From: Candidatus Hydrogenedentota bacterium
GTDB taxonomy: Bacteria; Hydrogenedentota; Hydrogenedentia; Hydrogenedentales; SLHB01
Reading direction: 5' to 3'
NCBI GenBank assembly: GCA_963674865.2
Contig: CAXXYE010000003.1
Location: 26,373 to 90,372, forward strand
DNA length: 64,000 nucleotides
The position numbers and the translations under genes were made by a program. The notes under the pieces were generated by a model. The model had not been told where the DNA came from and did not search any database. It saw only the letters and a list, made by a program, of their open reading frames with translations. Shown here in pieces: positions 5,073 through 56,415 of this stretch (the first letter of the stretch is position 1; each line of letters begins with the position of its first letter).

Positions 5073-6332
5073 CTAGGATTTCAGGAAATCCCAGAAATTG
5101 CCGCCCAGGAGTCGGGCGACGTCGCGCGCGATTTCATCCTTCGTAAGCGTCCAGCCCGTGGCCACCATGTCGGCGTACTTGTCGCCAAGCACGTCGGCGA
5201 TGATAGCCCGGGAATGCGTCCATTTGTAGATAAGCTGATCCAGGATGCGGCAGTCCGAGTGCTGCGGCACGACGCTCAGGCCGAGGAGCTCGAAGCGCAT
5301 CCGCGTGATCTCCTCGATCAGGCTCGGATCGTTGAGAAACCACCAGCACCCGAACAGGCACAAGTTGCGGAACTTCCGCGCCGCCACGCAGCAGGCATGC
5401 TGGTTCTCGCGGGCGAGCATCGTAAGCATGAATTTATTGTCCGGATAATCCGCGCACAGGCTCTCCACGGCGCCCACGTCCCCGTAGCCGACGCCGTCCG
5501 CGGCCAAACGCAGCGGCGGGTTGACGTTGCGCTTCACGCCGATCATCATCGCGAAAGGCACGTTGTGCTCGCGCGCCACGGGCAGCACGCACTCGGTGAT
5601 GAGCGTCGTCCGGGACGTTTCATCCGGGAACGCGAACGTCGGCGGCAGCGAGACGGCCATGTAGAGGGCCTTGATACGCGTCAGCCACTCATCGAGGAAG
5701 CGGCGCACCTCGCTCCGCGTCTCGACGCCCAGCGATTCCTCCACGGCGTATCCCCAGCCCTTCAGGCACTCGCACGCCCGCGGCCAATCCGTGAGGAGGG
5801 GGTCGATACGCAACGCCGCATGGAAGCGCGGATCTCCCTCGACGCCCGTTTCCCATAGGGGCCGCTCCAGATCATCGAAGGGGTCATTCGTCATGACGAC
5901 GGACTCGATATGGGCCGTCTTGAAGACGGTGTCGACGTAGTCCTCCACCGCCTGCTCGGCGAAGTACGCGCGGTACGCATCCAGATCGCGCGCGGCCACG
6001 TCCAGGCCCAGCTTGTTCAGCACGGTAAGGACGCCCCGGCACGCCTCGCTGATGGGCGAGCGCTCAACGAACAGCTCCTGCCAGATCAAGTCGGCCTGCT
6101 CGCGCTTGCTCATGGCGTAATAGGCGTCGTACGCCACGTCCGACGCACGCAGAGTTTCCGCGATGAGATAGTGGTACGTGATCAGCTCATCCACGCCCCA
6201 CAACAGCAACTCGCCGAACGGCGGGCTGTACAGGTGCGTGTGAATATCCGTCACCGGCGTGTCCTGCACCACTTGGCGGACGGCTGCGCGCATTTCCTCG
6301 GTTTGGCTCTGTTGGAATGGGCCTTCGGACAT
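5073..6332 (-). CDS. Glucuronate-isomerase-like amidohydrolase-fold protein
   Basis: PVTDIHTHLYSP metal-binding start, ITYHYLIAE and VVMTNDPFDD resemble the UxaC family layout. ATG at 6332 is preferred (GAGGAG 11 nt upstream) over the GTG at 6353. Confidence 0.45.
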   Translation of the reverse strand: MSEGPFQQSQTEEMRAAVRQVVQDTPVTDIHTHLYSPPFGELLLWGVDELITYHYLIAETLRASDVAYDAYYAMSKREQADLIWQELFVERSPISEACRGVLTVLNKLGLDVAARDLDAYRAYFAEQAVEDYVDTVFKTAHIESVVMTNDPFDDLERPLWETGVEGDPRFHAALRIDPLLTDWPRACECLKGWGYAVEESLGVETRSEVRRFLDEWLTRIKALYMAVSLPPTFAFPDETSRTTLITECVLPVAREHNVPFAMMIGVKRNVNPPLRLAADGVGYGDVGAVESLCADYPDNKFMLTMLARENQHACCVAARKFRNLCLFGCWWFLNDPSLIEEITRMRFELLGLSVVPQHSDCRILDQLIYKWTHSRAIIADVLGDKYADMVATGWTLTKDEIARDVARLLGGNFWDFLKS

Positions 6333-6668
6333 GATAACAACGGCTCCTCTCACGATGCTGTGGTGGATATACTTGCGCCGCCCGTAGCATACCGCAGCCG
6401 CCTCCAGCGGGGCAATTCGCGATCTTGCGGCGCCGACATCTTGCCGGCACGCGGAAGGCGAGACGCCTTCCGCGCAGCTACCGAGACGGTGGCGCTACTG
6501 TAGTCCGCCGAAGGGGCCTGCGTCAGTTTCCGGGATATTCCCGTCCAATGCGGCCTTCTCAAGGGGACCTCGCTCCGGTAGAAGTGTGGCCTGAACCTGC
6601 GGTTCCTGGTGGGATGCGGGAACGGGCCTCCTGTCGGTGGGGCGTGTGCATAGCCCGCCGTGGCGAAA

Positions 6669-9110: not shown

Positions 9111-12100
9111 TCGCCGGAAGTACCTCTCCCAAAGGCGTCACGCTAACCTTGCGGCAGTTGACGGAGCGCAGACTCGCTATGCTTGGGCGGTATTGCCTAT
9201 TGCGGGCGTTCCCGGACCTCGGAATGTCTGCCTTCTTGCGGGCGTCGAGCATGTGAACACACTCCAAGCGTCCGGCCTGTTCTTGAGAGACTCCCCGAAC
9301 CACGTACAACTCTCGGGCAACCTCCCCATCTTCTGTTTTCACGTCCACCTCAATCGTGTCTCCCTGCGTGAGCGAAAAGAGGAAATGCCGTCGAGGCTCC
9401 GATGTTCGGTGCACAATCGGCTCTTCGCTGCGCAGGCGTTGATGGGCCTCCAGCCGTGTCACGACGGCGCCTTGCCACTGCTTTGCTTCGCCTTGGGCGT
9501 CGAGAACGGCCACGACCTCCACGTGGCTGTTGCCGCGTGTCCAGACATGCCGGGTGCTATGGCCGTGTCCTATGGCCGTGGTCTTTCTCTTGTACCTGAG
9601 CCGCGCTTTGTGAATGGGAATGCGCCGGCCGTTTCTCGCTTCGATATGTGGATGATTCTCCGGGAATTCCAGTTTCTTGACGTCGCCCAGCTCCTCGATC
9701 TTCTCGCGCACCTTCTCCCTGATGTGGTCGTCCACAATGGCCGCAACGTCCCCCGCGCTCAAGTCCTTCAACGGCTTCCGCACGTAGGCCCATCCGTCCT
9801 CGGCAGGGGCCTCTCCGTAGAACGTTTCTTCGTGTAGGCTGCCCCGGATCTTCCGGGATACGCGGTGCGATACCACAATGTGATCGATGCATCCCTGAAC
9901 ATCCCGCAGGAAGCCGTCCCAGGGCGTCTCCAAGAGCTTCCACCATCCTCGGCTCCGGCCTTTTTCGTGTAGCTGCCGCTCCGAAGCCTTGCTCATCGCG
10001 GCCACCGTCCGGCGATCCGTCAGCGCAATCACCACAGCGTCGATGGCGTGGTGCCGGTGATCGGCGCGTGATTTCCCGCCGCCGTCGCCGAGGATCTTGT
10101 TCAGGTTCCAGGCCCCGCGCAGATAGGCCGTTACCTTGCCCGGACTGACCTGCACGCGGCTCCGCGCCGCCTCGCCGTAGAGCCAGGCCAAGTACTTCAT
10201 CGCCTCGCGGCCCGCGTAGCGCGTGTCGTTGAGCTTGCTCGACGCGAAGTCATCGAAAGGATCAAGATTCCGCAGTTGGAAGCGTTCGAGTTTTGCTTTC
10301 GCCGCGTCTCCCCGAAACTGCTTGACGCGATCGACGATCTCTTCCCACCTGTCCGAATCGCCGCCGTAGGCCTCAAAGGGCGTCTTGTTGCCTTTCCGAC
10401 TCTGGTTTTCCTCGTGGTAGCAAAGCGTCTTGTTGAGGAAGGAATCATCCAGGCAGCGGCTGAAGGGGATGATGTGCTCCACGTCAAACTGCGGGTGAGC
10501 ACCCACAAGCCCGGCAATGGAGATAGGTTTGCCCGTGTAGGGGCACTTCATATTCGACTCAATGGCCAACAGGACCTTCTCGATATCGGCCCGGCTCGGT
10601 TCTTTGTTGCCCGTCTCGTCCAAGATGAGCCTCGCGGCGTCTTTGCGCTTGGACTCGCGCTTGCGGCTGTTTTCCCATATCCGCTTGCGCTGCTCGCGCG
10701 GATTCTTCAAGTCTCGCGCCAGTTCCAGGCGGATGGCATCCGGCTTCCCGTATTTCCTGATGACTGCATTCACCACCTTGCGCAACTCGGTGAGCGCGCG
10801 GTGAACCGCCGGATTGCGCAGCGTCAGGCCTGCATCGTCCACCGAGGGCAGCTCGTCCACCGCCAGCTTCTGCCATTCCCGCGGATAGATCTCCGCCTTG
10901 GCCGTGGCAAAGGCCGTGCCCTCTTCCATAATAGGCAGCAGTTTGCGCAAGGCCCGGCGTGATAACGCGCTGTAGCCCTTCTCCAACTGCACTTTTCCGA
11001 AGGCGGCCGCCGCTTCCGGATCCAGTGCCCATACCTCTCGCCCCCGCCGCGCCAAGACCGATTCCTTCTGAATACTCCGCACGTCGTCAATGATGCTTTC
11101 CCGTTCGGCGTCACACAGCGAGTCCCAGCGCGCTCCAAAGATCTTGCGCAGTCGTGCGGCGGTGCGGTTGCCTGGCAGCTTCTTTTCCCCGCCCCGCTCG
11201 AGATTGAATTCGCACCCCTTCAGCTTCAGTAGTGTCCTGATGCTCCCGAAGGTGGCATCCTCCTGTTGCTCCAATTTGTCTAGGAGCTTCGCCCGCTCCT
11301 CGGGCGTCAACGGCCTAGGTTGCCCCTCTGGTGGGTGAACGCGCAGATCGTTGACCTTTTGCAGCAGCCGGAATCGCTGCGCTTCCGGGAGCGCCAGTGC
11401 CGCCCGTTTTCGCCCTTTCTCAAGCTCGCACTTGCCGATAAGGTGCTTCGCGCTCTTGAGCGGACGCTGGTAGAAGATCGCCCGGCGCACCTGCCGGTGT
11501 AGCTTCTCCGTCAGCAGTTCAGGATGATATGCCTGCTGTGCTTGCCAAAGAGCATCAAACTCTTCCTCGTACATCCGCCGCGCCGTCAAGCGCTTCCTGA
11601 GCCGCCGCTCCAGAATGGGATCAACTTTGGCGAGGTATTCGCCTAGCGTGCGAGCGCCTGCCTTCTGAATCAGTCCCGCCAGCTCACTGATCGCGGGCCC
11701 GACTTTGCCCTTTTCGTCATCATCGAGAGGCGTCTTGCGGTTGCTCAAGTATCCGCGTCGCTGTGCCAAGTGGTACAGAGCGCGGCCGAAGGCATGCAAC
11801 TCAAGCCGTTCATCCAGTCCGCGTGCTCGGAGGAAGTACGGCAACTGAGTCAGGGCCGGGCGAAGCGGCGCGTCGGCCGCCGTTTCCGCCTCGAACGCCT
11901 TGTAGAGTTCATTGTCTAGTTTGGCCAGGAGTGCGTGGCGTTCCGCGCCCCCCTTTACATCCCCGGGCGGCAGGAGTCCTGAACGCTGCAATAGGCCGGC
12001 CAGTTTCCGCATCCGCCGCGCCTGCCTGTCCGTTTGACGCCGTCGCTGCCGGGCCTCCCGCCGTTTTGCGGAGCGGGCCTCATCTTTGCCGGACTCGATC

Positions 12101-21936: not shown

Positions 21937-22186
21937 GATGCTCCTCCGTCGCTACGCGCCTCAGGCAAGTGAACATAACCTTACGAATCCGTGAAGGGAA
22001 AATCCATCATTTCGTCATGCGTTCCAGCGGCGGACTGTAATCCGCCGATACCGCTACGTGTCCCCCTTTCCGAGGATAACGGGATTTGCAGGATGTTTTG
22101 AGTGCCCATTCGCGCGTACTCAGTGGCAACATGCGCGGTTCCTCATCCCTTCTCTCTCTCTACGCTATCCTCTCTCGTATCCGCTC

Positions 22187-22276
22187 AATCCTGTTATCCC
22201 GTCCAAGAAGAAGCAAAAAGCGGGCACTGGCGCAAGCGAAGTCCGCCTCAGGCGGACGAAGACGTGTCTTTTCGCT
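22187..22276. repeat. Dispersed repeat family R2, copy a
   Basis: AATCCTGTTATCCCGTCCAAGAAGAAGC ... hairpin GTCCGCC-tca-GGCGGAC, then GAAGACGTGTCTTTTCGC. It is homologous to 31921..31986 and to the 52311..52745 block. Confidence 0.8.
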
Positions 22277-23608: not shown

Positions 23609-23757
23609 TTGCCTCCGTGCCATGTCTGCCTTATACTGTGCTATCATCAGGACGCGGAAACTGGCGGCAATAGCCTAACGTCCTGTAAAGAAAGGCTTTA
23701 TGGGAGTTCCGTCGGGGGTCTTATACCGCGATGGCCCGGCCCAGAGGTCTAATAAGG
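23609..23757 (+). promoter_or_regulatory. Conserved upstream module, copy C (promoter P plus E3 core)
   Basis: TTGCCT-17-TATACT (23609..23637) matches 52793..52821 at 26/29. The E3 core CTGTAAAGAAAGGCTTTATGGGAGTTCCGTCGGGGGTCTTATACCGCGATGGCCCGGCCCAGAGG (23683..23757) is homologous to 53029..53098 and 54480..54548. Confidence 0.6.
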
Positions 23758-23792
23758 AAGCCATATGAACGTTGTTCGAGCAAGAGGACTAA

Positions 23793-24581
23793 TGGAATCT
23801 TCATGAACGAGCCTTCCCGCGTTTCTGGGAGATATTCTTCGAGGTCTTCGAAGCCCTGCCCAGGCAGGGCCCCGGCAATCGTGACTGCGCCGTAAGAGCG
23901 CTCCGTTTTTGCGAAGGGCTCCCGCATGCACCGGCAGTCCTCGACCTGGGCTGCGGAGTTGGTGGACAAACCTTGCAGCTCGCCGAACTCACATCGGGCT
24001 TCATCACAGCAATCGACAGCCATGCTCCGAGCATTGAACGTCTCAAGAAGACTCTCGCCGCGCGAGGTCTCTTGCAGCGCGTTCAGGCGCAGGTTGGCGA
24101 CATGGCGCATCTAGAGCTGTTGCCGGAAAGCTTCGACCTTATCTGGTCCGAAGGCGCGCTGTACAACATCGGGATTGGTAACGCCCTGCGCACCTGTCAC
24201 GGCCTGCTGCGGCCCGGTGGCTACCTCGCTTTCACCGACGCGGTCTGGCGCAAGGACGACCCACCACCCGAGGTCAAAGCGATCTTTGAGTACCCGTCCA
24301 TGGGGTGGGCCGATGATATCGTGGCGGCGACACAAGACTGCGGATTCGAGCTGGTTGGGCACTTCACACTTCCTGACGAAGCGTGGTGGGTCGATTTCTA
24401 CACTCCTATGGAGACTCGCATCACGGAGTTGCGTGGCAAGTATGCCGACGATGTTGAAGCCTCAACCATACTCGATCAACTCAGCCAAGAGCCTGAAATG
24501 CATCGCAGATATTCGGACTTCTACGCCTATGAGTTCCTTGTGGCACGTCGTCCCCTTGCGCAATCGGGCGGCCGGGATTAG
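23793..24581 (+). pseudogene. Class I SAM-dependent methyltransferase, start region apparently disrupted
   Basis: Motif I VLDLGCGVGGQT is encoded at 23937..23972, upstream of the TTG picked by the ORF track. The frame is open from 23793 (WNLHERAFPRFWEIFFEVFEALPRQGPG...) but contains no ATG or GTG. The nearby ATG 23803 is in another frame. Confidence 0.55.
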
Positions 24582-24650
24582 TAAAGGACTTGAACAGGGC
24601 GCTCCAGCGGGGCGAAGCCGCTGGACCTCGATCGTTGAGAGGGTGGTAGA

Positions 24651-29691: not shown

Positions 29692-29784
29692 TCGTGACTA
29701 AGCCGCCAGCGCTGCTGGTGGGAATCGACACGGCTTTGCCGTGCCGGCGTTTCTTTCTGACGGGATAACGGGATGTGCCCAAAT

Positions 29785-49564: not shown

Positions 49565-52288
49565 ATGCTTACAAGTGCTTCCTATGCGGGCGTCATGTTC
49601 GGCGTGCTCCTGGCCGCCTTCGTGAGCGCAGCGGCGGACGACGCCTTCCCCGGCGTCGAATGGGAACAACGCGAGCCGGGCGCGCTCGGCCTCGACGGCG
49701 CTGAGTTGGACGAGGTGGCGGCACGCCTAGGAGGCCGCGGCTGCGTCATCAAGGACGGCTACATCGTCAAGTCCTGGGGCGACCTCGCTCAGTCCGGCGA
49801 CTGGCTGTCATCCGCCAAACCTGTCTTGAGCACCATCCTCTTCTTCGCCATCGAAGAGGACCTCGTTAAGAGCGTCGATCAGCCCATCGCGGAATTCGGC
49901 TGGGATTTCCGCCCCAAGGACAAGGGCATCACCTTCCGCCACCTCGGCGCCATGAGCAGCGGCTATGCGCGCCCCGAGGGCCCCGGCGAGGCGTGGGCCT
50001 ACAACGACTTCGCCATCCAGCTCTATCAGAGGACCCTCTTCGACAAGGTGTTCAAAGGCGACGCGAAGGAGATCGCCGAAGCGCCCGAACGCCTCGGCGC
50101 CCTCGGCTTGCAGGATGGACTCCGATTCAACGGCAAACGCCGCATCTACGCCTCCGTCCGCGATTTCGCCCGCATCGTCTGGTTCTGGCTCAACCGAGGC
50201 AACTGGAATGGCCGTCAGGTGCTGCCCTCGCGCTATTTCAACGAGTACATGCGCCCGCAAACGCCCAAGGACCTGCCGCAAACCGCCAAGGCCGAGACGG
50301 ATGACTACCTCGGCATCGGCTCCTACGGCGGCGGCTCGGACCACTTCAGCGTCGCCGGGCCGGGCATCTACGGCTTCAACTGGTGGTTCAACGACACCGG
50401 CCGGCTCCATCCCCACGCGCTGACGTGGCCCGATGCGCCGCCGGACACCATCATGAGCCTCGGCGCGGGCGGCAATTCCAGCGCCTTCATCCCCAGCCTG
50501 AACGTGGCCCTCGTGTGCGCCCAAGGCGACTGGGGGAATGTGCGCGGTGGCGAGCGCGACGCTGAGATGAACCGCGTCCTTGGACTCCTGGCGGAGGCGT
50601 GTGGATACACGCCCGAACCTGTCCTCATCACCGGCGAACGGCGGCAATGGCGCCCCATCACGCTTTCCTTCCGGGGAGACGATCTCGCCGAAACCGGCGA
50701 ACCGAACCCCTTCACGGACTATCGCCTGAACGTCGCCTTCTCCAAAGGCGGCCGCACCCTCGTAGTGCCCGGCTTCTACGCCGCGGACGGAAACGCCCTG
50801 GAATCGGGCGGCGAGGCCGGCCCCGTGTGGCGCGTCCACTTCGCCCCGGATGAGGAAGGTGTCTGGGAGTATCGCGTGTCGTGCCGGACGGGCCCGGGCA
50901 TCGCCACCGCTTCCGAACGAGACGCCGGCCAACCTACGGCGTTCGACGGCCTCTCGGGAAGAATCGAGATCGGCCCCGCCGACCCCGCCGCGCCCGGCTT
51001 CATCGCCACGGCCACGCTCCGCCACACGGGCGGGCGCTACCTGCAATTCGCCGGGACGAAGGAGTACTTCATTAAAGGCGGCGTGGACAGCCCGGAGAAC
51101 GTGCTCGCCTTCGCGGACTTCGACGGCACCGTGCCCACCCACAAGTACGAGCCCCACGCCGGGGACTGGCGCTTCGGCGACCCCGTGTGGCACGGCGACA
51201 AGGGGAAGAACCTGATCGGAGCGCTGAATTACCTCGCCGGCAAGGGCATCAACTCGGTGTATTCACTGACGATGAACGTCGGGGGCGACGGCAAAGACAC
51301 CTGGCCCTGGATAAGCGACACGGAACACCTTCGCTTCGATTGCAGCAAGCTGGATCAATGGGATGTCGTCTTCCGCCACATGGATCGCCTCGGCCTGATG
51401 CTCCACGTCGTCACGCAGGAGCAGGAGAACGACCAACTGCTCGACGGCGGCGAACTCGGGCCGGAGCGCAGGCTCTACTACCGCGAGTTGATCGCCCGCT
51501 TCGCCCATCATCCGGCACTGGTGTGGAATCTCGGCGAGGAAAACACGAACACGCCCGAGCAGCGCCGCGCCTTCGCCGCGTACATCCGCGCCCTCGACCC
51601 CTACGACCACCCCATCGTCATCCACACCTTCCCCAGCCAACGCGACGAGGTGTACACGGACCTCCTTGGCTTCGCCGACTTGGACGGCCCCTCCCTGCAA
51701 TTGGCCGATATGCGGGAAACGCACCGAGAGACGCTGAAGTGGGTGCAACGCTCACGCGAGGCCGGCCGGCCATGGTGCGTCTGCCTCGACGAGATCGGCC
51801 CTCCGAGCGTGGGCGTCAAGTCCGATGCCGAAGACCCCGACCACGACGACGTGCGGCGCTACGCCCTCTGGGGCAATCTCATGGCCGGGGGCGGCGGCTG
51901 CGAATGGTTCTTCCAGAGCGACAACCACTGTGAAGACTGGCGCGCCCGCGACCGCATGTGGGATCTGACGCGCTACGCCCGTGCCTTCTTCCAGCAATAT
52001 CTTCCCTTCCACGAGATGGTGCCCGCCGACGAACTGGTGTCGGGCGAAGGCGCGTGGTGCCTTGCCAAGCCCGGCGAGGTGTACGCCGTCTACACGCCGA
52101 ATGCGGCGGAACTGCGCCTGGAAGTCCCCGAAGGCACATATGACGTGGCCTGGTACGATCCGCGGCACGGCGGGGCCTTGGCCCAAGGCAAGCCGATCAC
52201 CGGCCCCGGCCGCATCGCCCTCGGCCCGCCACCCAGCGACCCCGACAAAGACTGGGCCGTCCTAATCCGCCGAGCGGCCAGGCATTAG
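49565..52288 (+). CDS. Secreted multidomain protein: serine-hydrolase-like N-region (tentative) plus a DUF5060-like Ig domain plus a GH5/DUF4038-like TIM-barrel
   Basis: ATG 49565 gives signal peptide MLTSASYAGVMFGVLLAAFVSAAA. FTDYRLNVAFSKGGRTLVVPGFYAADG...WRVHFAPDEEGVWEY is a DUF5060-like pattern. INSVYSLTMNVGGDG and VWNLGEE suggest a glycoside-hydrolase-like barrel. Confidence 0.5.
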   Translation: MLTSASYAGVMFGVLLAAFVSAAADDAFPGVEWEQREPGALGLDGAELDEVAARLGGRGCVIKDGYIVKSWGDLAQSGDWLSSAKPVLSTILFFAIEEDLVKSVDQPIAEFGWDFRPKDKGITFRHLGAMSSGYARPEGPGEAWAYNDFAIQLYQRTLFDKVFKGDAKEIAEAPERLGALGLQDGLRFNGKRRIYASVRDFARIVWFWLNRGNWNGRQVLPSRYFNEYMRPQTPKDLPQTAKAETDDYLGIGSYGGGSDHFSVAGPGIYGFNWWFNDTGRLHPHALTWPDAPPDTIMSLGAGGNSSAFIPSLNVALVCAQGDWGNVRGGERDAEMNRVLGLLAEACGYTPEPVLITGERRQWRPITLSFRGDDLAETGEPNPFTDYRLNVAFSKGGRTLVVPGFYAADGNALESGGEAGPVWRVHFAPDEEGVWEYRVSCRTGPGIATASERDAGQPTAFDGLSGRIEIGPADPAAPGFIATATLRHTGGRYLQFAGTKEYFIKGGVDSPENVLAFADFDGTVPTHKYEPHAGDWRFGDPVWHGDKGKNLIGALNYLAGKGINSVYSLTMNVGGDGKDTWPWISDTEHLRFDCSKLDQWDVVFRHMDRLGLMLHVVTQEQENDQLLDGGELGPERRLYYRELIARFAHHPALVWNLGEENTNTPEQRRAFAAYIRALDPYDHPIVIHTFPSQRDEVYTDLLGFADLDGPSLQLADMRETHRETLKWVQRSREAGRPWCVCLDEIGPPSVGVKSDAEDPDHDDVRRYALWGNLMAGGGGCEWFFQSDNHCEDWRARDRMWDLTRYARAFFQQYLPFHEMVPADELVSGEGAWCLAKPGEVYAVYTPNAAELRLEVPEGTYDVAWYDPRHGGALAQGKPITGPGRIALGPPPSDPDKDWAVLIRRAARH
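52144..52190 (+). repeat. Left copy of the direct repeat flanking island 2 (inside the 3' part of the 49565..52288 gene)
   Basis: CGTGGCCTGGTACGATCCGCGGCACGGCGGGGCCTTGGCCCAAGGCA matches 56327..56373 at 41/47. Weaker homology extends ~25 nt further upstream. Confidence 0.85.
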
Positions 52289-52310
52289 CGTCGCGACTCA
52301 GGACAAGCGC

Positions 52311-52745
52311 CAAGAAGAAGCGAAAAACGGGGACTGATGCAAGCGGAGTCCGCCTCGGGCGGACGAAGACGTGTCTGTCCCTGCTTTTCACGCTTTTCAG
52401 GTGTCAAACGCGAACGTCATGCCCGCGAAAGCACAGCAAAAAAGGGACTGACGCATGCGAGTCCGCCCGCAGCGGGCGAGACGTGTCTGTCCCTGCTTTT
52501 CCAGGCGGACGCAGACGTGTCTGTCCCTTTTCTTGCGCATCCTTGTCATCCCGTCTAAGTCTTGCCGTTTTCTACGCTGCTCAGTCCTGTTATCCCGTCC
52601 AAATCTTCGGCGGGCCATGCCCTGCCGTCTTGGCTATCTATCCAATCCTGTTATCCCGTCCAAGTCTTGCCGTTTCTTGCGCAATCCTGTCATCCCGTCT
52701 AAATCTCCCCGTTTTCCACTCAATCCTGTCATCCCGTCAAAGAAC
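52311..52745. repeat. Repeat family R2 block: three hairpin units plus five tandem AATCCTGTYATCCCGTC units
   Basis: GTCCGCC-n4-GGCGGAC / GTCCGCCC-gca-GCGGGCGAG hairpins with GACGTGTCTGTCCC tails at 52311..52392, 52436..52500 and 52503..52537. ATCCTGTYATCCCGTC-type units near 52540, 52583, 52643, 52683 and 52722. Confidence 0.85.
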
Positions 52746-52792
52746 CTCACTACACGCCCACCGGGCAACACCCCCCGTGTCGACACAACCAC

Positions 52793-53135
52793 TTGCCCCC
52801 GTGCCATGTCTGCGCTATACTCTCCTGCCATCGGAATGGGGAGGAAGAGGGGACATGTTCAAAGCGCCGTCTTCGGCGCGACTACCTGTCACCTTTTCGG
52901 GCCATCCTTTGAACCGGGGCGGCAAGGGCCTCAGGAGCCCCGTGGATGATCGGTAGAGGGGAGAACGAAGGAGCAGTACACAAAGGCCATACATCCCCTG
53001 AGGCCATTGCCGGACATGGCTTAATATATTGCAAATACAGGCTTTAGGCCAGCGTTTCCGGAGGAGCTTTATGCCGCTTTCGCCCGGCCCGAAGACGGGT
53101 CGCGCATCACTTGGCAGCCATTGGGGGAGGTACGA
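52793..53135 (+). promoter_or_regulatory. Conserved upstream module, copy A (promoter P, long leader, E3 core, SD plus uORF)
   Basis: TTGCCC-17-TATACT at 52793..52821. GGGGAGAACGAAGG at 52958..52971. E3 core TTGCAAATACAGGCTTTAGGCCAGCGTTTCCGGAGGAGCTTTATGCCGC at 53029... It is homologous along its length to 54224..54617. Confidence 0.6.
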
Positions 53136-53139
53136 ATGA
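53071..53139 (+). CDS. Candidate 22-codon leader uORF, translationally coupled to the downstream gene
   Basis: GGAGGAG SD is 5 nt before ATG 53071. It encodes MPLSPGPKTGRASLGSHWGRYE. Its TGA overlaps the ATG of the 53136 gene (ATGA). The ATG context TATGCCGC is conserved in copy B. Confidence 0.3.
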   Translation: MPLSPGPKTGRASLGSHWGRYE

Positions 53140-54167
53140 GGAGCCTGCGAACTATTGCTAACGAGGTCAATCGCGCGGCGAGCGCCTACCGCATGGGTGA
53201 GTTCCAGCTCATTCGCCAGCGCATCCATGGACTTTCCCGGTCGAAGACGCGACAGATATTCACGGCTCAGACAATAAGGGACACATATGCATTTCACTCC
53301 GGCGGCCGGAAAGAGATCCAGTTCAATATCGGTTTCGAGGGTGACGCCAAGGAGTATCTGCGATACGGGCTGGCGTTCTCGCTGGAACCAAGCCGGACGC
53401 TCCCTGAGCCACTGATGCTCAAGCCGAAGATCCTGAGGCTGAATGAATACATCAGCACGAACTCGTCGGAACTCGATGATCTGCGATTTTGGTACTACTT
53501 CAACGAGGACAGAAGCCCCTCCCGTCCCGTGACTCCGATTGCTGAGGCGCTGATCCGCAAGCGCACGTTCCTGTTCTTAGGAAAGATGTCGCCACGCGAG
53601 ACGGTGCAGTCCCAGGAGATTCTGTTCCTGTTCGATCGCCTACTCTCAGCATATGAGTACGTGGAAGGCAACACGCCCCTACCGAAAACGCGGACAGATC
53701 TGCGCAAGGGACTTCAGTTCAAACCAGGTTGCTCCGAGAAAGCGCCTGCGTCAGTGCGTCATCCCGGCACCATGACGAAGTCTGTTACGCTTCGGCACAC
53801 TGAGCTTGAGAAGGCCGTCTACACTATTCTCTTGCAGCGCCATGGAGAGGAGAACGTCGGGACGGAGAATGACACAGGCCGGGGCTCGCGAGTGGACTTG
53901 GTTGTGCGGGATGGCAAGCAACACATCTACTATGAGATCAAGACAAGTCCAGACATCAGGACCTGCCTGCGCGAGGCAATTTCGCAGCTTCTAGAGTACT
54001 CGTATTGGCCCGGCGGCAACGAGGCCACCGCTCTGGTCGTTGTGTCGGAGAATCCCATGACACACGACGCACGGAGATATCTGGCCACACTCAGGAATCG
54101 CTTCAATATCCCGATCTACTACCGGTATCTCGAGATGGGATCAGGCACACTTGGGAAGCATGAATAG
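53136..54167 (+). CDS. Hypothetical protein with a C-terminal PD-(D/E)xK nuclease-like domain
   Basis: C-terminus GSRVDLVVRDGKQHIYYEIKTSPDIRTCLREAISQLLEY fits the D...(D/E)xK...Q restriction-endonuclease-fold motif. The N-terminal ~230 aa were not recognised. ATG 53136 is preceded by GGGGGAGG. Confidence 0.5.
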   Translation: MRSLRTIANEVNRAASAYRMGEFQLIRQRIHGLSRSKTRQIFTAQTIRDTYAFHSGGRKEIQFNIGFEGDAKEYLRYGLAFSLEPSRTLPEPLMLKPKILRLNEYISTNSSELDDLRFWYYFNEDRSPSRPVTPIAEALIRKRTFLFLGKMSPRETVQSQEILFLFDRLLSAYEYVEGNTPLPKTRTDLRKGLQFKPGCSEKAPASVRHPGTMTKSVTLRHTELEKAVYTILLQRHGEENVGTENDTGRGSRVDLVVRDGKQHIYYEIKTSPDIRTCLREAISQLLEYSYWPGGNEATALVVVSENPMTHDARRYLATLRNRFNIPIYYRYLEMGSGTLGKHE

Positions 54168-54223
54168 GGACAGCCCCAACATCGACCTTCAGGCCAGAAG
54201 GCCAGCGCGGATCGGGGCCATTC

Positions 54224-54617
54224 TTGCGCTGAGGTCAGGCATTGTATCGTGCTGAAAGGAAGCGTCCCAACTAAGAAACACTATCCGCTTTGCGGCCTGG
54301 ACTACTATGGCGGGACTCAGGACTTCAGGTGGTACTCACAGATGGTGATTCCTGTGGGCCAATCGGTGGCGCAAGGGTGTCAAGAACCCCGAGAACTATC
54401 TGCAACGGGGAGAACGAAGGGCCACTAGTACAGACGCCGTCTGTCTGTCTGTGTCCATTGCACAGCATGACTTAATGCTCTGTAAATAAAGGCTTTGGGC
54501 CAGTCTTGCCGAAGGGGTCATATGCCGCAATCGCGCGCATCGAGCGGGCGTCCTCCGTCCGTTGAGCCGCCGCCGGGCCGTTCCCCTATTGAAGAGAAGA
54601 AGGGAATCTGATACATC
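54224..54617 (+). promoter_or_regulatory. Conserved upstream module, copy B
   Basis: Degenerate P (TTGCGC-15-TATCGT, 54224..54250). GGGGAGAACGAAGG at 54407..54420. E3 core CTGTAAATAAAGGCTTTGGGCCAGTCTTGCCGAAGGGGTCATATGCCGC at 54480... The distance from the GGGGAGAACGAAGG box to the uORF ATG is 115 nt, versus 113 nt in copy A. Confidence 0.6.
54522..54611 (+). CDS. Candidate 29-codon leader uORF ending 6 nt before the endonuclease ATG
   Basis: GAAGGGG SD-like box sits before ATG 54522. It encodes MPQSRASSGRPPSVEPPPGRSPIEEKKGI and is positionally equivalent to the uORF in copy A. Confidence 0.3.
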   Translation: MPQSRASSGRPPSVEPPPGRSPIEEKKGI

Positions 54618-55355
54618 ATGTCCATGGAACCTGAGAGCATACTCCACGATCTGACCCGTCGCACAGGCCAGGCCGTTGCACACTACTGGAGGACGCGAAC
54701 CGGACAGCAAGACCGGCAACGCCAGACAGGCAAGGCTGACCAGGGATTGCGCAGCGCCGTAACCGGCGGCGCTCAGATGGATGGTTTCATCGACCTCTTC
54801 ACGGAACTCATCGTAGCGACTGGGATTCCCGAGCGTTGCGTCTTCCGGAAGAAGGCCGTTGAATTGCCGGGATTCTTCCGTCCCACCAAGGAATGGGACC
54901 TGCTCGTCGTACGGGAGAAGACGCTGCTGGTTGCCATCGAGGCGAAGTCTCAGGGCGGGCCGTCGTTCGGGAACAACTTCAACAACCGAACCGAAGAGGC
55001 GATGGGAAGCGCCCTCGACTTATGGACTGCCTATCGGGAGCGCGCATACCTTGATAGCCCCCAGCCCTTTCTCGGCTACTTCTTCATGCTGGAGGATTGC
55101 CCCTTGTCCAACCGCCCCGTCAAGGTCAGGGAGCCGCATTTTCAGGTCTTCCCCGAATTCCTTGGCGCATCATACATGCGGCGGTACGAGGTATTCTGCC
55201 GCAAGCTCGTGCTGGAACGTCACTACACTGCGGCAGCGTTTGTCTCATCCACGGCAACCGACGGCATCCAGGGACATTTCGCGACGCCGGCGGAGGACCT
55301 GTCCGTCGAGCGTTTCGCCAAGACCCTCGCGGCGCACGTGGCCGCCTTTGCCTAG
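54618..55355 (+). CDS. Type II restriction endonuclease, XhoI/PaeR7I-like family (recalled from memory, not searched)
   Basis: 245 aa. RSAVTGGAQMDGF ... PTKEWDLLVV ... VAIEAKSQGGPSFGNNFNNRTEEAMGSALDLWTAYRE resembles the conserved core of PaeR7I-family enzymes. A DNA methyltransferase follows immediately. Confidence 0.65.
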   Translation: MSMEPESILHDLTRRTGQAVAHYWRTRTGQQDRQRQTGKADQGLRSAVTGGAQMDGFIDLFTELIVATGIPERCVFRKKAVELPGFFRPTKEWDLLVVREKTLLVAIEAKSQGGPSFGNNFNNRTEEAMGSALDLWTAYRERAYLDSPQPFLGYFFMLEDCPLSNRPVKVREPHFQVFPEFLGASYMRRYEVFCRKLVLERHYTAAAFVSSTATDGIQGHFATPAEDLSVERFAKTLAAHVAAFA

Positions 55356-55360
55356 AGCCA

Positions 55361-56268
55361 TGGAGACCACCGTTCATAGACTCATTAACGGGGATGCCAG
55401 AGAGCTTGCATTCCTCGATGACGCGTCCGTTCATCTCGTGGTGACGTCCCCTCCCTACTGGAACCTGAAACGCTATAACGAGAATCCAGACCAGTTGGGA
55501 CACATACAGGACTATGAGGCCTTTCTGTTCGAGTTGGAAAAGGTGTGGCGGCATGTCTACCGCATACTCGTTCCCGGCGGAAGACTTGTTTGCGTGGTTG
55601 GGGATGTCTGCGTCGCCCGGCGGAAGTTCGGCCGCCATCTCGTCTTTCCTCTCCATGCCGACATCTGCGTTGTCTGTCGACGGATCGGATTCGACAATCT
55701 CAATCCGATCATCTGGCACAAGATCGCCAACGCCTCCTATGAGGTCGAGAACGGTTCGAAGTTTCTTGGGAAGCCCTATGAACCAAATGCCATCATCAAG
55801 AATGACATGGAGTTCATCTTGATGCAGCGGAAACCGGGAGGCTATCGGAAACCCACGAACGAGCAACGCGAAGCAAGCAGAATCGAAAAGGAGACATTTG
55901 ATCGCTGGTTTCAGCAGATCTGGAACATAACCGGGGCCTCCACCAAGAAGCACCCGGCCCCGTATCCTCTGGAGTTGGCGACGCGCCTTGTCCGGATGTT
56001 CTCCTTCACGGATGACACGGTTCTCGATCCCTTCTGTGGCTCCGGCACCACCATGGTTGCCGCCTTGCGAAACGGGCGCAACAGCATCGGGATCGAGATC
56101 GATCCCGACTACTGCCACATGGCCGCCCGCTACCTGAAGGCGGAAACGGCGGATCTTTTCTCGACAGCGGAACTTCGCTTTGAGAAGGCGCCCACCGAGA
56201 CAACTGCCATGGTGCGAGAAGACAAAGCACTGTACGAAGTACGGCCCGCCAAGAAGAAGCTCGAATAG
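55361..56268 (+). CDS. DNA amino-methyltransferase, beta-class (motif IV SPPY before motif I)
   Basis: VVTSPPYWNLKRY (motif IV) is N-terminal and DPFCGSGTTMVAA (motif I) is C-terminal. ATG 55361 is 5 nt after the endonuclease stop. Confidence 0.85.
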
Positions 56269-56326
56269 GCAAGCCATCCTGCATCGCCTTGCCACGCGGA
56301 ATTCTCCCTCATGAAGGCCCGCACGC

Positions 56327-56373
56327 CGTGGCGTGGTACAATCCACGGCATGGCGGGGCGTTGGCCCAAGGCG
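56327..56373 (+). repeat. Right copy of the direct repeat flanking island 2 (decayed C-terminal fragment of the 49565..52288 gene)
   Basis: In frame it reads ...HAVAWYNPRHGGALAQGE, versus YDVAWYDPRHGGALAQGK in the intact gene. 41/47 nt are identical. Confidence 0.85.
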
Positions 56374-56415
56374 AGGCGCGCGCGCCTCTTGGCACAGTGA
56401 AGGCAGGGATGAGTC

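Follow-up and report, generated by a model that had tools for sequence, protein, structure and literature searches.

The repeated module that precedes two genes of the window, here the whole stretch of 64,000 nucleotides analysed from a Candidatus Hydrogenedentota bacterium, is with high probability a vestige of an integron platform. The module is composed of the last 17-35 codons of an integron-integrase gene (intI) and about 135 nt of the non-coding intI-attI stretch. The earlier note had assigned it to no known class, a view superseded by its identification as the intI 3' end and the region leading to attI. The locus is a vestigial "inverted integrase" integron with defence cassettes. Elements of this kind are known, and this one is decayed; the tandem platform copies are its sole unusual feature. 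The second option of the note, a boundary element for the cassettes of a mobile system, was right in that the locus is an integron, but the module is a platform vestige and not a boundary (attC).

Extent and sequence of the repeated module

A blastn comparison of copy A (52922-53086) and copy B (54371-54537) gave a single significant alignment of 167 columns with 69.5% identity and an E value of 1.5e-14, in agreement with the homology noticed earlier upstream of gene 1 and the R gene and with the estimate by eye of roughly two-thirds identity. The proposed length of 340-390 nt was too great. With an HMM built from external copies only, homology extends over about 170-190 nt, at 52902-53093 for copy A (E 2e-32) and 54364-54537 for copy B (E 7.8e-23); the last 25-45 nt ahead of each start codon, formerly counted as part of the module, are cassette or decayed sequence instead. 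The same HMM detected a third copy, C, at 23669-23778 (E 4.5e-18), which was absent from the earlier note; the core is common to A, B and C. The GGGGAGAACGAAGG box is the same in copies A and B with no further occurrence in the window, and the core word AAATAMAGGCTTTRGGCCAG is found in these two copies only, with 0 expected by chance; both words had been pointed out in the earlier note.

A consensus scan recovered the promoter-like element P of copy A, the sigma70-like TTGCCC-17-TATACT, at 52793..52821 (+), 314 nt upstream of gene 1. This 29-mer matches copy C at 23609-23637 in 26 of 29 positions, and the metagenomic locus L016 has a similar element, CCGTGCCATG..TACAATACT, upstream of its intI remnant. 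The "degenerate promoter" TTGCGC-15-TATCGT once attributed to copy B (~54225-54255) has no homology to the copy A promoter. It belongs to the gene 1 attC, as its 3' arm, and its sequence is also conserved beside gene 1 homologues in other samples. No promoter element was found in copy B, so that read-through from gene 1 probably serves the restriction-modification (R-M) pair behind it.

The short uORF described for both copies does exist in A and B, but it is not a feature of the family, since the ATG in TATRCCGC is ATA in 7 of 12 aligned copies. The uORFs of both window copies have a Shine-Dalgarno-like sequence upstream; the stop codon of the uORF in A overlaps the start of gene 1 (ATGA), and that in B lies 6 nt before the R start.

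Link to the integron integrase

A metagenome scan with the core pattern yielded four true homologues (L012, L014, L016 and L018). Elsewhere the module, about 225 nt long, is located directly behind integron-integrase genes, mostly pseudogenes, and shares its orientation with the genes that follow. In L014, it stands behind an ORF (its 54 terminal residues are not reproduced here) that matches the TIGR02249 integron integrase profile to its last position (E 1.8e-33) and also VchIntIA (2a3v; E 1e-22). Near-full-length intI pseudogenes lie directly 5' of the module, on the same strand, in L021, L039 and L041. The 245-aa ORF of the L021 pseudogene by itself reaches 281 bits, above the TIGR02249 cut-off of 265, and an intact relative, P0372 (338 aa), scores 445 bits. 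The layout behind P0372 is the stop codon, about 200 nt, GGCGTTAGGC and then an ORF on the same strand.

Both tandem copies of the window carry the end of such a gene. The remnant of copy A (52855..52956, +) spans 33 open codons, the last 17 of which encode HPLNRGGKGLRSPVDDR before the stop; by tblastn it is 81% identical to the L014 IntI C-terminus over 16 aa (E 5.9e-6), with 16 of 17 residues recognisable. A box-II piece, TCHLFGPSF, lies at 52884-52910 (+) in a frame other than that of this remnant. The remnant of copy B (54282..54405, +), identified by tblastn and DNA comparison, shows decay and no longer has a stop codon (NRWRKGVKNPENYLQ at 54361-54405). It gave a weaker tblastn match than A, ten residues against NRWRKGVKNP, and was compared by eye with the intI pseudogene DNA of L021 and L014, its extent upstream of 54355 being approximate. 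This remnant begins right after the attC of cassette 1 and is longer than that of copy A. In L014, L018, L020-L029, L038, L039, L041 and L042, intI is on the same strand as the cassette genes and attC, with its 3' end towards attI, and the remnants of A and B are likewise on the cassette strand and point towards attI. No intact intI was found in the window, which holds C-terminal remnants only, and the locus is thus a vestige and not a functional integron.

Region K and the attI crossover

In intact relatives, the non-coding region termed K fills the distance between the stop codon of intI and the putative attI crossover, ...AAACATTG|TT. Homology among the canonical copies ends exactly at ...AAACATTGTT|, the putative G|TT crossover. 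Among external copies it stops at ...TTGTT or ...TAGTT in 9 of 10, with unrelated sequence beyond; L041b reads CATTGTAA. The canonical K end is ...ACCATATAAACATTGTTAGGC, and the putative IntI recombination region is ...ACCATATAAACATTGTT. Two AGAAACCATATA repeats are candidate IntI-binding repeats. The "attI" of this clade is inferred from the homology break-points and from the likeness of ATAAAC-ATT-GTTAGGC to the attI1 simple site.

Region K of copy A (52957..53113, +), placed between the intI stop and attI by the external HMM and alignment, is homologous to the canonical copies until ~53093, and its final ~20 nt, the place expected for the attI core, are decayed. In copy B (54406..54580, +), homology reaches ~54537 and decayed sequence follows, ending at the G of G|TTCCCC. 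The final ~40 nt of the canonical sequence, attI core included, are missing from copies A and B. What identifies these two copies is therefore the 170-190 nt further upstream, together with the cassette boundaries, and not a recognisable crossover site. Partial copy C (23609..23778, +) has no intI remnant; its P element (23609-23637) is joined to the 3' half of K (23669-23774), and it retains an intact attI-like core, GAACGTTG|TT.

Cassettes behind the module

Cassette 1 (53114..54241, +) consists of gene 1 (53136-54167, +; 343 aa) and its attC (~54174-54247). The family of gene 1 is uncharacterised, with no match in PADLOC, Pfam or NCBIfam, and 754 homologues were found. A structure model and fold search returned a C-terminal PD-(D/E)xK-like fold, and the protein is a putative PD-(D/E)xK nuclease. 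Its attC, CCCCAAC...GGTCAGGC ATT, has CCCCAAC as R'' and ATT instead of GTT as R', and its real position is between gene 1 and copy B. When the homologues in L001 and L003 were compared with that in L002, the attC was common to L001 and L002 and divergence set in right after GCGTT|. Bottom-strand folds of the L001 and L002 sites gave z scores of -5.6 and -6.7, and the window copy gave -1.4.

Cassette 2 (54581..56277, +) is a PaeR7I/XhoI-type R-M pair with the R gene at 54618-55355 and the M gene at 55360-56268 (both +). It matched PF04555 with E 1.9e-91 and was called REase_II plus MTase_II by PADLOC. The 5' boundary of this cassette, G|TTC(G/C)CC, is identical in four contexts (the window, L008, L011 and L030). 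A full attC is retained after M in L011, while that of the window is truncated after TAGGCAAGC. Identical G|TT boundaries in unrelated contexts mark both gene 1 and the R-M pair as integron cassettes, and the attC of gene 1 folds. The module is absent beside the closest homologues of gene 1 and of the R gene (77% and 86-88% protein identity).

The cassette behind copy C (23775..24640, +) holds a class I SAM methyltransferase ORF (to 24581), supported by methyltransferase matches in NCBIfam, and an attC-like site, TTGAAC (24590-24595) ... GTTGAGA (24634-24640), with a bottom-strand z of -2.2. All attC sites were identified by anatomy and junctions. Cargo behind related modules includes GmrSD, Qat-like genes, AAA_15, NERD and PLD nucleases; in L021, the 640 nt after the module end in an attC (TCTAAC...GTTAGAT), and a GmrSD gene follows.

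The A/B island is flanked by an imperfect direct repeat (82%) found by repeat search, its left copy (52130..52195, +) being the 3' end of a host DUF5060 gene and its right partner lying at 56313-56378. The GC content falls from ~0.65 to ~0.57 between the two.

Proposed mechanism and alternative readings

In the "inverted integrase" type of platform, intI is transcribed towards attI and the cassettes. From established integron biology, IntI would once have inserted circular cassettes at attI, and transcription from the platform would have expressed them. The genes behind the module are cassettes captured at such sites. The array now looks frozen, because no intact intI is present in the window and copies A and B are without an attI core; the ATT for GTT in the attC of gene 1 and the truncated attC of the R-M cassette give the same appearance. 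The module may at present act as a promoter and 5' leader, a role for which we lean slightly towards doubt. No sigma70-type promoter was found inside canonical K, which leaves this role weakly supported in general and unsupported for copy B. The presence of a platform copy inside the array, directly behind an attC, is unlike the product of ordinary attI x attC capture.

The earlier note had offered, as one of two options, a portable regulatory cassette (structured RNA leader or attenuator). Put more widely, this reading is a portable cis-regulatory RNA (a structured leader, riboswitch or attenuator with leader peptide) controlling the downstream defence genes. A long conserved non-coding stretch ahead of different genes, together with a uORF and its ribosome-binding-like sequence in both window copies, would fit such an RNA. 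The module folds no better than shuffles, though, with single-sequence z scores of +0.24 and -1.16; for 12 copies, RNAalifold gave -10.5 kcal/mol, to which covariation contributes +0.77, and its 17 pairs include hardly any compensatory changes. Rfam was negative both at E<=5 and at the gathering threshold. Other copies do not preserve the 16-bp stem seen in copy A (52920-52935 / 52997-53012), the uORF start reads ATA in most of the aligned copies, and the tail of the intI coding sequence makes up the module's 5' third. A regulatory RNA is therefore extremely unlikely. It is very unlikely, too, that A and B are merely a local tandem duplication in this genome, even with derived states common to both and absent from external copies (GGGGAGAACGAAGG, and GGCCAG replacing ATG.GA in the alignment), which suggest one sub-lineage. 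Many unrelated metagenomes and MAGs contain the module, and each copy is closer to L012/L014 (73-74% for A, 66-67% for B) than the two are to each other (only 63%). Copy B moreover starts exactly at the attC junction of cassette 1 with a longer intI remnant than that of A, which simple duplication of A would not yield, and L041 shows the same platform-cargo-platform layout.

We consider it improbable, with somewhat more room for doubt, that the intI tail and K form a mobile unit, either a "platform cassette" whose excision would use a secondary site within intI, or an entire small integron circle that attC x attC recombination would insert; such a unit would seed insertion sites and promoters in arrays and defence islands. 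The start of copy B directly at the attC junction, the tandem platforms in the window and L041, and three copies within 31 kb of one genome would all suit a mobile unit. So would the best 120 protein matches to the IntI tail, all fragments of 60-112 aa and many of them 66 aa, and the recombination proficiency of attI-gene-attI and delta-attI cassettes in class 1/2 integrons (PMC12901181). Against this, the 5' ends of the intI remnants vary (L018, L038/L041a, L012/L016, A and B) and look like internal deletion and decay, the 66-aa length is a gene-caller effect in pseudogenes bearing stops or frameshifts, intact relatives exist, and no copy was found with G|TT junctions at both ends. A related proposal, likewise rated improbable, is that the intI-tail and K module is kept and sometimes copied into arrays after integrase loss, either as an expression and landing pad for defence cassettes that an IntI from another locus would use in trans, or as a component of a minimal circular "platform + cassette" unit. 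Both forms would account for the tandem platforms, the three copies within 31 kb and the strong conservation of K beside broken integrases.

Several other candidates were rejected. A fixed left end at 66 codons was discarded because the 66-aa products are gene calls within pseudogenes and the left ends differ. For a module-encoded small protein on either strand, the minus-strand ORFs at 52882-53034 and 54325-54468 share only the residues of the identical box. A MITE or IS-derived repeat was dismissed since the repeat search showed no inverted repeats bracketing the copies, whose ends are the intI remnant on the left and the cassette junction on the right. From the sequence alone, DGR template/variable repeats (mismatches not A-specific), a sigma54 promoter (GG/GC spacing off by one and absent in B) and C-protein boxes (no HTH gene) were set aside. 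K as a long attC was also rejected, its arms being unpaired by eye and its consensus fold weak. Nothing was found in viral contigs by a two-block pattern scan or in plasmids by blastn. A scan of genome contigs with AAATAMAGGCTTTRGGCCAG, which was too strict, gave four matches against about four expected; L006 and L007 had no flanking motifs, and all four were taken as chance.

Significance and comparison with known systems

With the platform vestige as the preferred reading, an apparently unknown "portable leader" becomes an explained object. Two defence loci, one a PaeR7I-type R-M pair and the other belonging to an uncharacterised PD-(D/E)xK-like family, are integron cassettes whose boundaries stay fixed as they pass between phyla. 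The analysis also defines the intI-to-attI region of one environmental clade of inverted integrons; outside the clinical classes, little is known of attI sites. The K sequence could help annotation tools to spot integron heads with a broken integrase. How such arrays are assembled and expressed is a modest question raised by the tandem platforms and by the repeated loss of intI beside a region that is retained.

The closest known system is the inverted integron-integrase group of chromosomal integrons of the Treponema denticola type (PMC3607928, PMC4889954). As in that group, intI points towards attI on the cassette strand, the putative crossover is G|TT(A/G)(G/A)(G/A)(C/T), attC sites fold as imperfect hairpins, and the integrase of relatives scores above the TIGR02249 cut-off. 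The window differs in that 17-35 codons are all that is left of its integrase, two of its three copies have no attI core, and the platform occurs twice in tandem. Its K sequence is specific to its own clade, and no description of it was found in the literature searched.

Integrase pseudogenes adjoining cassette arrays have been described, as has the IntegronFinder class CALIN, defined by at least two attC sites (PMC4889954). Here too, cassettes and attC sites occur without a working integrase and with C-terminal IntI pseudogene fragments nearby. The A/B island, however, has one complete and one truncated attC, and its remnant includes the non-coding region on the attI side, repeated. In attI-gene-attI and delta-attI cassettes (PMC12901181), attI-derived sequence likewise lies on both sides of a captured gene in one array. 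Those are short (partial) attI1/attI2 sites in clinical integrons with active IntI1, whereas the window repeats about 190 nt, including the intI tail, beside a normal attC, and its recombination competence is doubtful. Finally, R-M and other anti-phage functions are known to be encoded by integron cassettes (PMC10661359), and the R-M pair of the window travels as a cassette in the same way, with no essential difference.

Identity and extent of the repeated module

The module repeated upstream of gene 1 (CDS 53136-54167) and of the endonuclease gene R (54618) is homologous to the tail of an integron integrase gene (intI) plus K, the non-coding stretch from the intI stop codon to attI. Both upstream regions are related, as an earlier note had claimed: pairwise blastn of 52290-53135 against 54168-54617 gave one significant alignment, 52922-53086 versus 54371-54537, with 69.5% identity over 167 columns and an E-value of 1.5e-14, and beyond it chance-level matches only. 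The shared length of 340-390 nt proposed there is too long, with three of the claimed pieces falling outside the module: 52793-52900 of copy A (before gene 1), the 5' third of copy B (before R), supposed promoter included, and the final 25-45 nt ahead of each start codon. Within the 64-kb window, GGGGAGAACGAAGG (14 nt) and the core of 20 nt are confined to these two copies. A third, partial copy (C) had been overlooked; it comprises a 29-mer at 23609-23637, identical at 26 of 29 positions to the promoter-like element P of copy A, and the 3' half of the core at 23669-23778. An HMM trained on external copies only and then run on the window detected copy A at 52902-53093 (E 2e-32), copy B at 54364-54537 (E 7.8e-23) and copy C at 23669-23778 (E 4.5e-18).

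Rfam held no family matching the module, plasmid and viral searches with it found nothing, and a genome-collection scan returned four matches, approximately the chance expectation, two of which (L006, L007) were inspected and lacked flanking motifs. A metagenome scan, its pattern built on the window's three copies, identified four true homologues (L012, L014, L016, L018). In L014, the module lies directly 3' of an ORF fragment whose alignment to TIGR02249 'integron integrase' runs through to the last profile position (E 1.8e-33) and which also aligns with VchIntIA (2a3v), RGxxGVxSP tail included; XerC/XerD profile and structure alignments end at this tail. Using tblastn, copy A translates as HPLNRGGKGLRSPVDDR followed by a stop (52903-52956, E 5.9e-6), with a box-II fragment, TCHLFGPSF, just upstream, and copy B as NRWRKGVKNPENYLQ. 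These translations match the IntI tail, so the shared GCAAGGG...CCCCG stretch described earlier is intI coding tail, and the 'identical box' sits just past the intI stop codon.

Loci found via IntI-tail proteins consist of a near-full-length broken intI, the module and cargo, all on the same strand; in L021 the N-terminal intI ORF reaches 281 bits on its own, the TIGR02249 cut-off being 265. Homology ends with ...TTGTT or ...TAGTT in nine of ten external copies (consensus ...GAAGAAACCATATAAACATTGTT), with unrelated sequence beyond, the exception being L041b, which reads CATTGTAA. In L021, the 640 nt past the module end in an attC (TCTAAC...GTTAGAT), and a GmrSD gene follows. The arrangement recurs in an intact relative, P0372 (338 aa, 445 bits), whose stop codon is followed by ∼200 nt, GGCGTTAGGC and a same-strand ORF. 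Canonical modules, those with a complete end at the G|TT crossover, contain a 12-nt direct repeat, AGAAACCATATA (e.g. L012 ∼445-460 and ∼570-585), one copy lying ∼30 nt past the intI stop and the second abutting the crossover CATTGTT. The attI1 site also carries direct repeats, and by analogy these two are candidate integrase-binding sites.

Cassette boundaries and cargo genes

Module and cargo are separable in both cases: the module is missing upstream of gene 1's nearest homologue (77% identity, L001-L003) and of close R homologues (86-88% identity; L008-L011, L030-L037). Gene 1 and this homologue share a conserved 80-nt 3' flank, an imperfect hairpin from CCCCAAC to ...GCGTT, and two contigs with the same gene (L001/L003 versus L002) diverge directly past GCGTT|. 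The bottom strand of this flank is much more stably folded than its shuffles, with z-scores of -5.6 and -6.7 (L001 and L002 sites). R and these close homologues share a conserved 35-nt 5' flank that starts GTTC(G/C)CC in four contexts. Together, the two flanks have the features typical of attC sites and G|TT cassette junctions in integrons, and the cassettes are mobile across contexts.

R and its methyltransferase M form a standard type II system. This PaeR7I-type pair is a widely travelling cassette, with R proteins at 86-89% identity present both in many metagenome samples and in MAGs from several phyla (Deltaproteobacteria, Planctomycetes, Hydrogenedentes), and a G|TTC 5' junction in every contig examined. 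In L008-L010 it stands behind a different attI-like site, TCAATAAC ACT GTTCGCC; a promoter, TTGACA-17-TAATCT, lies ∼70 nt upstream.

Gene 1 (343 aa) has no Pfam, NCBIfam or PADLOC match. In its structure model (pLDDT 85.6), the C-terminal domain resembles PD-(D/E)xK nucleases, e.g. Can2/Card1, NucS and Hjc, with Foldseek probability up to 1.0 but E-values of only 2e-3 to 5e-2. For gene 1 the label 'defence-type' is plausible but tentative. It represents an unannotated family (∼343 aa) whose 754 homologues (E<=1e-3) come from Zixibacteria, Nitrospirota, Dehalococcoidia and further groups; P0103, one of its members, carries a fused EVE domain (PF01878), and the C-terminal third is modelled as a PD-(D/E)xK nuclease. 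Gene 1 may be a modification-dependent restriction enzyme.

Related platforms carry GmrSD beside BREX genes, a Qat-like operon, and AAA_15, NERD and PLD genes, in agreement with the reported enrichment of integron cassettes in R-M and anti-phage functions (PMC10661359). In the metagenome contigs L020-L025, a broken integron head adjoins a divergent BREX operon (BrxE, BrxA, BrxB, BrxC), and the second cassette encodes a GmrSD-type enzyme.

Locus setting and decay

Copies A and B lie in a 4-kb low-G+C island (0.55-0.59 versus 0.62-0.69 in the flanks). Its order is a DUF5060 host gene ending at 52288, host-type intergenic repeats (52300-52760), copy A, gene 1, copy B, the PaeR7I/XhoI-family R (PF04555, E 1.9e-91), the N6/N4 DNA methyltransferase M (55360-56268) and a 66-nt remnant of the host gene 3' end. 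Imperfect direct repeats (82% identity) bracket both integron-vestige islands, 94 nt around copy C (23399-23492/25556-25649) and 66 nt around A/B (52130-52195/56313-56378), each being the 3' end of the host gene directly upstream. Such repeats would be consistent with one-sided homologous recombination that brought the DNA in from a relative and displaced the recipient's gene end. Host-specific intergenic repeats, which take up the gap separating the host gene from copy A (52300-52760) and also occur at 22186-22270 and 29759-29773, include CAATCCTGTYATCCCGTC, present five times with 39-61-nt spacing and as single copies elsewhere in the window, and a terminator-like hairpin repeat, GAGTCCGCC..GGCGGACGAAGACGTGTCTGTCCC.

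In copy C both the promoter-like element and an attI-like core, GAACGTTG|TT, survive, and behind them comes a cassette with a methyltransferase ORF and an attC-like site. This methyltransferase ORF (23793-24581) has no in-frame ATG, GTG or TTG before 23973, and its conserved domain starts near 23826; a frameshift, gene decay or an unusual start may account for this. Copies A and B lack the final ∼40 nt of the canonical module, R' of the gene 1 attC is ATT, not GTT, only nine bases of the R-M attC precede its truncation (compare L011), and tblastn with the IntI tail found no intI in the window, remnants only. The array thus looks immobilised.

The intI tail and K often survive beside broken integrases. 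Three independently broken intI (L021 ∼1350-1440, L039 ∼9940-10030, L041 ∼5900-5990) have their lesions, TAG stops and 1-11-nt deletions, all inside the IntI-specific segment YPNAxxEWxWQWxFP, and still score strongly as integron integrases outside it. L038 (∼9920-10010) and L041 (∼1290-1440) have the same internal-deletion intI, in which ∼17 N-terminal codons run straight into the final ∼66; this suggests that the derivative has spread. Intact relatives are 77-84% identical across the last 66 residues, so this integron clade is not uniformly dead.

Origin and function of the module

A fresh duplication of A and B was rejected: over shared columns they are 63% identical mutually, yet identity to L012/L014 is 73-74% for A and 66-67% for B. 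A few derived states are common to both. Copy B starts at the attC junction of cassette 1, so the platform-cassette-platform-cassette order did not arise from ordinary attI x attC capture. L041 contains a similar tandem: one copy, decayed, occupies 1545-1773, and the other, at 6149-6372, lies behind an intI pseudogene. One candidate origin is recombination, either attC x attC or at a secondary site, that inserts a circular 'intI-attI-cassette' unit; clinical integrons are known to contain attI-gene-attI architectures (PMC12901181). The L041 contig also carries a MobA/MobL relaxase, with an AAA_15 gene and a 399-aa gene between the copies, the upstream copy being the more decayed.

The earlier note had also proposed a structured RNA leader or attenuator, and folds, covariation and the uORF start argue against it. 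Single-sequence folds were no more stable than those of shuffles, and the consensus fold of 12 copies (17 pairs, -10.5 kcal/mol, covariation term +0.77) showed almost no compensatory changes. Seven of these 12 aligned copies have ATA where the uORF would start, and the uORF stop of copy B falls within flanking sequence that belongs to the R cassette. Canonical K yielded no sigma70-type promoter, and the promoter consensus is matched solely by element P, in copies A and C. The note's alternative, a gene-cassette system, was right in spirit, the system being an integron, with the module itself the intI tail and intI-attI spacer. From integron biology, the end of K would be the site where IntI once inserted the cassettes, platform transcription would express them, probably from P through the intI remnant, and the present-day module would be at most a promoter and leader.

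The intI-attI region is ordinary, and no description of it was found in the literature searched. The locus is a vestigial integron of known architectural type carrying defence cassettes, and the module loci follow the 'inverted integron-integrase' layout, which has been described in Treponema among others (PMC3607928, PMC4889954).
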